Positions 40,501 to 43,500 of a stretch of DNA of 64,000 nt are shown in pieces. Position 1 is the stretch's first letter. Each line of letters starts with the position of its first letter. This DNA is from Escherichia coli (GTDB taxonomy: Bacteria > Pseudomonadota > Gammaproteobacteria > Enterobacterales > Enterobacteriaceae), in the NCBI RefSeq assembly GCF_003991155.1, contig NZ_CP031295.1. One strand, 5' to 3'. The position numbers are program-made.

Positions 40501-43500
40501 CTGTATTGCTGACTGCCATTTTGAGCGAGGAGTTTTCAGCAGATCAGGTTGTAACCTTACTCAGTCAGACGACAGGATGGAAGCCTTCTCAGGCCGATAT
40601 CAGAGCTGTGTTGACTGAACTCGGTGCTTTGCAATCTGCTGAAAAAATGCCTCCTTCTGCTACTGATTCGGTGCAGGAGGCAATGAATGATGTGCGCCTT
40701 AAAATGCAAAAATTATTCTGATATATCAGAATGAAGCAATGGGGATCTCAGTCCATTGTGTTGTATACGAAGGCGAGAGCATTTCCCGTTTCATTTGCCA
40801 TTCAGGGGCGGTTCCTCGCCCCGCAAACCACACTTTCCCTTTTCCAGACTGGTTCAGTTCATCGAGTGTTTTCATTAACTTTTCGCTGTTTTTACGGGGC
40901 TGGATCTCATCAAATAATCCCGGCTGCGCTATACCCGATGGTGTGAAATCAGCCAGCATGACTCCTGCCTTCATATAGCGGTACCCTTCACGCCAGACAT
41001 GGTTTAACGCTCTGCATGCTGCGGCAATAATGTCCCGGCTGTCCTGTGTGGGTAATGGAAGCTTTTCCACAGCGGCATTGCTGTAACAGGGTTCTTTTAC
41101 TGCAAAGGGGGATGTCCGTACAAATGTCGTCACCTGCCGGCAATACTGACGCTCCCCACGTAGTTTCTCTGCGGCCCGCTCTGCATACTGAACAACAGCC
41201 TGGTGCATGGCATCTTTGTCTGTGATTCGTTCACCAAAACTGCGACTACAGACAATCTGCTGTTTTGCCGGTGGTGCTTCTTCCAGGGATATGCAGGACT
41301 CGCCGTTGAGTTCGCGTACCGTACGCTCAAGAATGACGCTGAAGTTTTTCCGGATGAATGCCGTGTTAGCCTGCGCCAGCTGCAGTGCTGTGTTAATACC
41401 CAGCGCATTCAGCTTTTCCGTCAGTCTGCGTCCTACTCCCCAGACCTCACCAACTGGCTGCAGCCCCAGTAGCTTCAAGATCCGATTACGGTTTTCTGCC
41501 TCCAGCGCGACCACACCGGAAAACTGTGGCCATTGCTTTGTTGCCCACTGTGCACTTTTAGCCAGCGTTTTTGTAGGCGCAATGCCCACCCCCATGGTGA
41601 GTCCTGTCCAGCTCTTTACCTGTTCCCTGAGCTGATGACCAAAAACCTCCGGAGAGATGCAATGATTTATCCCCCGCAAATCAATGAACATTTCATCAAT
41701 TGAGTAGGGCTCAACTGCGGGAGAAAGCGACTCCAGAACAGCCATGACCCGTTGGCTCATGCTGTGGTACAGCGCATAATTGCTGGAAAATACATGTATT
41801 TTCTTCTCCAGGCGCATCTGTCTCACCTGAAACCAGGGCTGCCCCATTCTGATGCCAAGGGCTTTTGCCTCCGGGCTGCGCGCGATCACACAGCCATCGT
41901 TATTGCTGAGTACGATGACCGGTTCGTTGCGAAGGTCCGGGCGGAAAACTTTTTCACATGAGGCGTAGAAACTGTTGATATCAGCCAGTGCAAACATCAG
42001 CGTAACTCCCGCGTCCTGTGTATCACGTGAGTGACAACACCAAAAATACAGATGTTTTCCGGATACAGTGTGCGGAATTCCGGGCTGTCTGAAACCGGCT
42101 CCAGTGCCGGGCGTGGGCGCAACAGCAGTCGTTTGACGGTGAACTCACCGTCGATCTCAGCGATAACGATGTCCCCGTGTTGTGGTTTCTCGGCCCTGTC
42201 CACTACCAGCAGATCACCATTCTGCACGCCAGCCTGGTTCATCGATTCACCGCTGGCGCGCAGAAAGAAGGTGGCTGCAGGTCTGCTGATGCAATAGCTG
42301 TTCAGATCCAGTTCCTGCTCAGCATAATCAGTGGCAGGCGAAGGAAAACCGGCCTGGCAACGATCGGCAAACAACGGTCGCACGTAACTGTCATCGCCTG
42401 AAGGGTCAGCCGGACGGTGATAAACGGTACTCATGCTGCAGGCAGCCAGCTGTCGTCCTGCCAGATTTCTTCCAGCAGAGACAGGATACGTTCTTTATCC
42501 TTGTCGTTGCGGGCTCCTGTGACAGATACAGACGGGGCGCTGCCCTGGTCAATACGCAGCCAGATTTCCGGGTAGTGTGGTTTCAGACGTTGTTCGATTT
42601 CATTCTGTAGCGCCTGAAGTGTGCCTGATTTGAGGTTTTTTGTGCTCTGGCGGTCGAAAAGAATTTCAATGCGGATCATGTTCTCATCTCCCTTTTTTAT
42701 TGCTGTATGTATATACAGTATTCTAATAACTGAATCCACACACAGTCAAATGTCATTATTGTGACTAAAAAACGCTCAATTCTCTGAGAGTGTGGCTGTA
42801 TGCCTGCTGTGGACTGCTGTGTCCAGCTTATCCACAGCATTTTGCGCACGGTTCTGTGAATAAAATACCTGGTTACCCAGGCCGTGCCGGCACGTTAACC
42901 GGGCTGCATCCGATGCAAGTGTGTCGCTGTCGCCGGCCTCCTCACCCGGTCACGTTTCGTCGTTCCTCCTCCACGCGCTGCGGCTTCGGGGCCGCACCTG
43001 CATTCGTATGCGGTCGCCCGGTTACAGGTGCGGCACGGCCTGATGGAGGCCGCATGTGAGAGGAGAATTCCCATGCCAAACTGGTGCTCGAATCGTATGC
43101 ATTTTTCTGGTGAACCGGCACAGATTGCTGAGATTAAACGACTGGCCAGCGGTGCCGTCACACCGCTTTATCGCCGCGCCACAAATGAAGGTATTCAGCT
43201 GTTTCTGGCCGGAAGTGCCGGACTTCTGCAGACCACTGAAGATGTGCAGTTTGAACCGTGCCCCGGACTGACGGATGCCGGACGTGGTGTTGTATCGCCG
43301 GAGAATATCGCGTTCACCCGCTGGCTGACACACCTGCAGAACGGTGTACTGCTGGATGAGCAAAACTGCCTGATGCTGCATGAACTCTGGCTGCAGAGTG
43401 GTACTGGCCAGCGTCGCTGGGAAGGATTACCGGATGAGGTCAGGGAAACCATCACCGTGCATTTCACCGCAAAAAGAGGTGACTGGTGTGGCTTCTGGAG

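Follow-up and report, generated by a model that had tools for sequence, protein, structure and literature searches.

The impCAB operon, a plasmid relative of the chromosomal umuDC genes, was reportedly described by Lodwick et al. in 1990 on the plasmid TP110, and its Shigella form is said to have been described by Runyen-Janecky et al. in 1999. For the operon of pTF2, Table 1 of PMC12211044 (Microbiol Spectr 2025) gives a LexA box at -21 with a heterology index of 1.60, whose 20-mer, TACTGTATATACATACAGCA, is identical to the one reported below, and the same study gives a weak site, AACTGAATCCACACACAGTC, with an index of 13.49. In an SOS-hyperinduced lexA strain, ImpC rose 21-fold, ImpA 9-fold and ImpB only 2-fold, and it is from this lexA-mutant proteomics that LexA control of the box was inferred; deletion of impC, impA, impB or the whole operon left SOS levels and conjugation frequency unchanged (PMC12211044). 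For impCAB of TP110 and of the Shigella virulence plasmid, PMC12211044 and PMC10286972 cite work in which effects on UV survival and on induced mutagenesis are reported. The latter (PLoS Genet 2023) describes a severe growth defect upon forced impCAB expression, consistent with genes that have to be repressed tightly, and its authors place impCAB, in their TraDIS analysis, in the leading transfer region.

In this report, we analyzed a stretch of 64,000 nucleotides (hereafter the window) from Escherichia coli contig NZ_CP031295.1 (assembly GCF_003991155.1), for which a sequence-only reading had proposed an SOS-regulated error-prone polymerase operon. We are highly confident that the window carries a plasmid impCAB operon, the counterpart of chromosomal dinI and umuDC, and that LexA controls it directly. 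The operon, its box, its SOS induction, the toxicity of its overexpression, and its position and orientation are all already known; the value of the finding lies in a correct annotation and in reminding us that the timing of the mutator differs from that of the SOS inhibitor PsiB. When antibiotics induce SOS, plasmid homologues of pol V can increase the mutation rate, and they ride on multidrug-resistance plasmids; here tet(M), cmlA1 and a class 1 integron are nearby.

The imp genes and their likely contribution

Three intact, overlapping open reading frames occupy the minus strand from 42679 to 40726, in the order impC-impA-impB:

42431..42679, minus strand: impC, 82 aa, DinI-like (Pfam DinI 65 bits, cut-off 24.2)
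41997..42434, minus strand: impA, 145 aa, UmuD-like self-cleaving subunit of the S24 type (NCBIfam NF007621)
40726..41997, minus strand: impB, 423 aa, UmuC-like Y-family DNA polymerase (NCBIfam NF002955)

The genes are contiguous on one strand behind a single promoter-like site. The stop codon of impC and the start codon of impA overlap as ATGA, those of impA and impB as TGATG (1 nt), and these overlaps suggest translational coupling.

The DinI-like gene stands first, a trait that separates imp from umu, muc and sam. ImpC aligns with the DinI structure 1ghh (E 6.8e-6) and scores 41 bits against the NCBIfam DinI equivalog model, whose cut-off is 111 bits; we therefore call it DinI-like and not DinI itself. 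ImpA reaches 143.4 bits against NF007621, the model of the autoproteolytic pol V subunit (cut-off 110). Its Ala28-Gly29 falls on the Cys24-Gly25 cleavage site of UmuD in an alignment that is free of gaps over this segment, and in the alignment to the UmuD structure its Ser64 and Lys101 fall on Ser60 and Lys97. ImpB scores 790.9 bits against the UmuC model NF002955 (cut-off 431), covers model positions 1-421 of 422, and has the four Pfam domains of its family (IMS, IMS_HHH, IMS_C and DUF4113); Asp6 and Asp101-Glu102 lie on the catalytic residues of Pol IV when aligned to the structure of that polymerase. The description of impA as UmuD-like and impB as UmuC-like was thus sound, with both families above curated cut-offs and the cleavage and catalytic residues present. 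Judged by their sequences, all three frames are intact and look catalytically competent.

The same genes are widespread. The exact ImpC and ImpA sequences correspond to the UniRef entries 'Protein ImpC ... IMPC_ECOLX' and 'Protein ImpA ... IMPA_ECOLX'; the SwissProt ImpB name was absent from the cluster look-up of the present ImpB, although this protein is full length. At the DNA level, the 2.5-kb imp region is 100% identical to many plasmids of Escherichia, Salmonella and Shigella. It matches at least 5000 records and, among the matches listed, 1997 span at least 80% of the query. Identical plasmids are annotated alike, with a DinI-like protein, a UmuD subunit and a Y-family polymerase.

The most credible reservation about impCAB, which we judge unlikely all the same, is that the operon is LexA-repressed but makes little or no contribution to mutagenesis from its native plasmid, being restrained by ImpC, PsiB or other plasmid factors; it would then be kept mainly for damage tolerance of plasmid or host, or simply as a conserved landmark where the leading region ends. 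The imp deletions that leave SOS and conjugation unaltered (PMC12211044) speak for such a minor contribution, as do the toxicity of impCAB overexpression (PMC10286972) and the statement in PMC11541004 that it is unclear what plasmid umu-like genes do. PMC8460599 reports, moreover, that the R391 polV is strongly mutagenic if subcloned, but poorly so from its native element. Against it stand the intact frames, which keep all catalytic residues and recur with 100% identity in many plasmids, and the reported effects on UV survival and induced mutagenesis cited above for the TP110 and Shigella operons. Selection also argues against it: negative (purifying) selection was found for leading-region genes, for example parB_2 and 940, and the remaining broadly conserved coding sequences of the plasmid all behaved much alike; Figure 6 of that study includes impCAB (PMC10286972).

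The edge of the leading region

The surroundings of the operon were delimited by the transfer origin and by the genes and RNA families between it and imp:

59745..59761, minus strand: F-type oriT nic site GTGGGGTGT/GGTGCTTT, exact match
60540-60651: traJ-5'UTR/FinP (Rfam)
56376-56552: sok (Rfam)
55551-56270, plus strand: psiA (PsiA 130 bits)
55117..55554, plus strand: psiB, SOS inhibitor (Pfam PsiB 212 bits; same annotation in an identical plasmid)
52174-52752, plus strand: ssb (SSB 128 bits)

The query for the nic site was GTGGGGTGTGGTGCTTT, which we take to be the F/R100 nic sequence. Past the site lie traM, traJ, traY and traA. As the nic site is on the minus strand, this is the strand that is transferred (T-strand), and the leading region extends from 59.7 to 43 kb. 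Its further plus-strand genes encode a DUF1281 protein, two methyltransferases, an anti-restriction protein, a DUF3560 protein and a ParB-like protein. Three repeats of about 650 nt carry a hairpin with 61-nt arms, of the kind of the Frpo-like single-stranded DNA hairpins, and their T-strand fold has a z of -11.7; another structured T-strand segment, at 42750-43040, lies beside the imp promoter (z = -5.4).

The imp promoter is about 17 kb from nic, and the operon as a whole about 17-19 kb. impCAB is the distal boundary of the leading region, transcribed divergently from it and pointing away. It had been placed directly upstream of a leading region encoding PsiB, and it does adjoin the far end of that region; this wording has to be amended, as the two are transcribed divergently and psiB, on the opposite strand, is 12.4 kb away from the imp promoter. 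Being farthest from nic, the operon would be the last to enter among the leading-region genes, and, since the sense strand of imp is on the T-strand, it cannot be transcribed as long as only this single strand has entered.

The further claim that the plasmid carries both an SOS-induced mutator and an SOS suppressor is borne out by the presence of psiB. The pairing is real and holds no paradox, for the two are apart in time. New transconjugants of F make PsiB and SSB for a short time only, from Frpo single-stranded DNA promoters, and neither protein is detectable in vegetative F donors (PMC9849209). Transient PsiB from such promoters, together with an imp operon that the T-strand cannot template, implies that mutator and suppressor act at different times.

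The constant placement and orientation of impCAB at the edge of the leading region, beside the structured segment at 42750-43040, leave a slim prospect of some role in plasmid establishment. If that were true, the operon might insulate the island transcribed from single-stranded DNA; alternatively, completion of the complementary strand could be coupled to the passage from SOS suppression by PsiB to mutagenesis gated by LexA. The presence of the operon at this place would in that case not be explained by UV mutagenesis alone. A separate reading makes impCAB an early establishment function that is on in the recipient during entry, along with the rest of the leading-region genes, for instance for fill-in or damage bypass on the incoming strand. 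The inclusion of impCAB in the leading transfer region by the TraDIS authors (PMC10286972) and the structured segment adjoining the imp promoter are in its favor, but we hold it to be very improbable: the T-strand is the imp sense strand, which offers no template before complementary-strand synthesis; the operon enters last; PsiB would block the RecA filament required for LexA cleavage and ImpA processing; the deletions left conjugation frequency unaffected (PMC12211044); and the orientation seen here is common to 90.3% of plasmid umu homologues (PMC11541004).

The LexA box and the imp promoter

The LexA box consensus of gamma-proteobacteria is TACTG(TA)5CAGTA. Upstream of impC, the following elements were located:

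42749..42744, minus strand: predicted -35 hexamer TTGACT (consensus scan)
42725..42720, minus strand: predicted -10 hexamer TAGAAT, 18-nt spacer from the -35
42720..42701, minus strand: strong LexA (SOS) box, 20-mer TACTGTATATACATACAGCA in operon orientation
42728..42747, plus strand: weak LexA-like site AACTGAATCCACACACAGTC, overlapping the -35 hexamer, 9.8 bits
42688..42692, minus strand: Shine-Dalgarno sequence GGGAG, 8 nt ahead of the impC ATG

The sequence-only reading had announced a consensus LexA box. A strong box is confirmed, on the minus strand like the operon itself, and it is near-consensus instead of perfect: it has 2 mismatches (18/20) to the ideal palindrome TACTGTATATATATACAGTA. 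Its 16-mer core, CTGTATGTATATACAG, lies at 42703-42718; with the impC ATG at 42679..42677, the gap is 21 nt from the 20-mer and 23 nt from the core, so that the distance of 24 bp first given was right within one base. Only one site in the window comes within 3 mismatches of the ideal palindrome, and none did so in 100 dinucleotide-preserving shuffles. Sites were also scored with a symmetrised LexA weight matrix, built from 23 E. coli LexA sites. By this matrix the strong box ranks first in the window with 27.6 bits, close to the highest scores of the training sites themselves, while scores in 100 Markov-simulated 64-kb sequences went no higher than 18.5 bits (mean 11.9).

Looser patterns are less discriminating. 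CTGT-N8-ACAG alone occurs at 3 sites where 0.7 are expected, and 3 were reached in 6 of 100 shuffles; by itself this bare pattern is not rare, and its enrichment in the window is not significant. CTGNNTN7CAG gives 23 matches for 7.5 expected, an excess due in part to palindromes being counted on both strands. A LexA-like site inside impB (41386-41405; 15.4 bits) was dropped, as it scores below the simulated maximum of 18.5. The weak site at 42728-42747 lies, with its 9.8 bits, inside the chance range of the simulated sequences, and its function as a second operator is uncertain.

Sites of the bare pattern also occur elsewhere in the window. One, at 21274-21293, is just upstream of intI1, at the LexA-controlled promoter of the class 1 integrase, a reported LexA-box position. 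Another, at 11191-11210, is just upstream of the ISCR2 transposase gene, at its promoter, for which LexA binding was published in a 2025 preprint. As a separate observation on the imp box, some plasmids have an ISL3-family element inserted inside it, with an 8-bp duplication.

The predicted sigma-70-like promoter has 10/12 consensus matches and ranks first among the promoter-like sites of 40400-43200. Its predicted -10 hexamer TAGAAT ends in a T with which the LexA 20-mer begins, so that bound LexA would cover the transcription start. No RNA family was found by Rfam within or beside the operon.

Conservation adds little to these arguments. A blastn search of 42300-42800 against 72,556 plasmids returned 2,922 records, and among the matches listed all copies that contain the promoter are at least 94.8% identical; the remoter matches (about 80%) comprise a short piece of impA only, in samA genes. 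As the promoter copies are near-identical and the remote matches lack the promoter, conservation is no independent test of the box.

SOS regulation itself, the core of the initial proposal, agrees with the published rise of ImpC, ImpA and ImpB under the identical LexA 20-mer (PMC12211044). It is extremely improbable that this AT-rich inverted repeat arose by chance, with the operon constitutive or under a non-LexA regulator, as the insignificant enrichment of bare CTGT-N8-ACAG might suggest, given the 18/20 match, the absence of any comparable site from the 100 shuffles, a score of 27.6 bits against a simulated maximum of 18.5, the abutting predicted -10 hexamer, the SOS-dependent induction published for the identical sequence (PMC12211044) and the related samAB operon with a box of its own in the same place.

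Proposed mechanism and comparison with known systems

From the anatomy of the promoter, we propose that in an undamaged cell a LexA dimer would sit on the near-perfect box and, since the box runs from the last base of the -10 over the transcription start, would block RNA polymerase. The heterology index of the umuDC box is 2.77. The imp box, at 1.60, is nearer consensus, and its low index leads one to expect that repression is very tight and that induction comes late and at a high threshold, only when SOS is strong or lasts long. By homology to UmuD, UmuC and DinI, DNA damage would lead to RecA-ssDNA filaments and self-cleavage of LexA, and one transcript would then give ImpC, ImpA and ImpB. 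ImpA would cleave itself on the RecA filament at Ala28-Gly29 by means of the Ser64/Lys101 dyad, and ImpA'2 would join ImpB in a pol V-type translesion polymerase conferring UV protection and induced mutagenesis. ImpC, to go by DinI, probably moderates the activity of RecA filaments, and the processing of ImpA would be limited as a result.

Conjugative entry would follow another course. As the T-strand arrives, PsiB, SSB and the anti-restriction genes would be turned on transiently from single-stranded DNA hairpin promoters, and RecA activation would be blunted. The geometry of the locus suggests that imp is not expressed before the complementary strand exists and is LexA-repressed thereafter, a silence that PsiB would reinforce. 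The mutator would become available only later, in an established host that suffers real DNA damage.

Among known systems, the locus is closest to impCAB as carried by the IncI1 plasmids TP110 and pTF2 and by the virulence plasmid of Shigella flexneri, with which it shares the same three genes, order and overlaps. Compared with pTF2 (PMC12211044), the strong 20-mer and the weak second site are identical and equally spaced. The closest full-length matches of the window, however, are F-type multidrug-resistance plasmids (MOBF/MPF_F, IncFIA/FIB/FIC) and not IncI1.

Compared with E. coli umuDC and dinI, the imp operon likewise has a UmuD-like cleavage site and Ser/Lys dyad, a UmuC-like Y-family polymerase, a one-base gene overlap, a LexA box at the promoter and a DinI-type modulator. 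It differs in being plasmid-borne and in having the DinI-like gene upstream in the same operon, and its cleavage site is Ala-Gly, as in LexA, whereas that of UmuD is Cys-Gly. mucAB (pKM101), samAB (Salmonella plasmids) and rumAB (R391/SXT) have, as imp does, a two-gene umuDC-like core and a LexA box. In the samAB locus examined, the box, TGCTGTATATAAAAACAGGC, is directly upstream of samA and, unlike in imp, no dinI-like gene comes first; samAB resembles imp at the DNA level only over a small part of impA, with a similarity of about 80%.

The wider setting matches the anti-defence islands of PMC11541004 (Samuel et al., Nature 2024), which are flanked by oriT and often have umuCD homologues at the opposite end, a layout presented there as general. 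Here oriT and impCAB close off the two ends, and in between the genes for DUF1281, methylases, anti-restriction, ssb, a ParB-like protein, psiB/psiA and hok/sok are templated by the T-strand, with imp on the opposite strand; we found no difference from these umu-bounded islands, of which the present locus is a textbook instance.

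SOS-linked modules

Each of the three CTGT-N8-ACAG sites of the window lies at a reported LexA-box position, upstream of impCAB, the ISCR2 transposase or intI1; this resistance plasmid therefore carries at least three SOS-wired modules. The elements of the two modules other than impCAB are:

21274-21293, CTGT-N8-ACAG site GACTGTTTTTTTGTACAGTC, 10 nt upstream of the intI1 start codon
21263..20250, minus strand, intI1 ORF (class 1 integrase)
11191-11210, LexA-like box TACTGTGTTTACATACAGTC, from the LexA-matrix scan
11173..9680, minus strand, ISCR2-type (ISCR/IS91-type) transposase ORF, 497 aa

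GACTGTTTTTTTGTACAGTC is the LexA box already known for intI1 (Guerin et al. 2009). With 21.7 bits against a simulated maximum of 18.5, TACTGTGTTTACATACAGTC ranks second among the LexA-matrix sites of the whole window; it overlaps the -10 (TAGACT) of the ISCR2-type transposase, whose ORF starts 17 nt downstream. Its neighbours are a LysR fragment and an MFS transporter ORF of 404 aa, which by eye alone looks FloR-like. According to a 2025 preprint, the ISCR2 promoter is bound by LexA in vitro, with weak induction.

The stretch upstream of the partition genes (14001-37000) is a mosaic resistance region, containing TnAs3, tet(M), cmlA1, intI1 with dfrA- and aadA-like cassettes, and ISVsa5. Among the plasmid records compared, no single one covers more than 76% of it.

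The two ends of the imp operon

In some F-type plasmids the impCAB LexA box is interrupted by the ISL3-like ISEc53, which carries a ClbS/DfsB gene. An 8-bp target duplication, ATATACAT, flanks the element, and the insertion splits the LexA box and cuts impCAB off from its own promoter. Three records (H78-H80) share the breakpoint among the matches listed for the imp promoter region. In the one record examined (L003, NZ_CP095511.1), the relevant stretches are 1100-1125 and 2990-3015, equivalent to window ~42707-42714, and impB is also broken by IS21.

At the 3' end of impB, the stop codons of two convergent genes occupy the two arms of a palindrome, which may act as a hairpin or terminator for both genes or else be a scar of recombination:

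40716-40731, perfect 16-bp palindrome TTCTGATATATCAGAA
40719-40721, plus strand, TGA stop of the stbB-like gene
40728..40726, minus strand, TGA stop of impB

Structured DNA and RNA in and beside the leading region

A repeat of about 650 nt is present in three copies, 75-97% identical, upstream of the DUF3560, ssb and ORF95/DUF932 genes. The three RNA entries below are Rfam matches at the gathering score.

48225-48880, first repeat copy
51524-52191, second repeat copy
56951-57608, third repeat copy
49004-49103, minus strand, AS-pc01 antisense RNA
56376-56552, plus strand, sok, the antitoxin RNA of hok/flm, with psiA on one side and the third repeat on the other
60540-60651, traJ 5'UTR with FinP, immediately beyond oriT

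The intergenic DNA separating the imp promoter from the DUF1281 gene (42750-43040, minus strand) folds as T-strand at -68 kcal/mol, far more stably than shuffles (z = -5.4), with a long-range stem closing roughly 42880-43040. It has no repeat in common with the 650-nt copies. It might act as a signal for strand conversion, or as an ssDNA promoter of another type that drives the last operon of the leading region.

A long imperfect hairpin with 61-nt arms lies in each of the three repeats, and the T-strand fold of 51900-52180, in the copy upstream of ssb, reaches z = -11.7. The repeats resemble ssDNA promoters of the Frpo type. Plasmid F is described as having two Frpo; compared with it, this plasmid therefore has a third Frpo-like copy.
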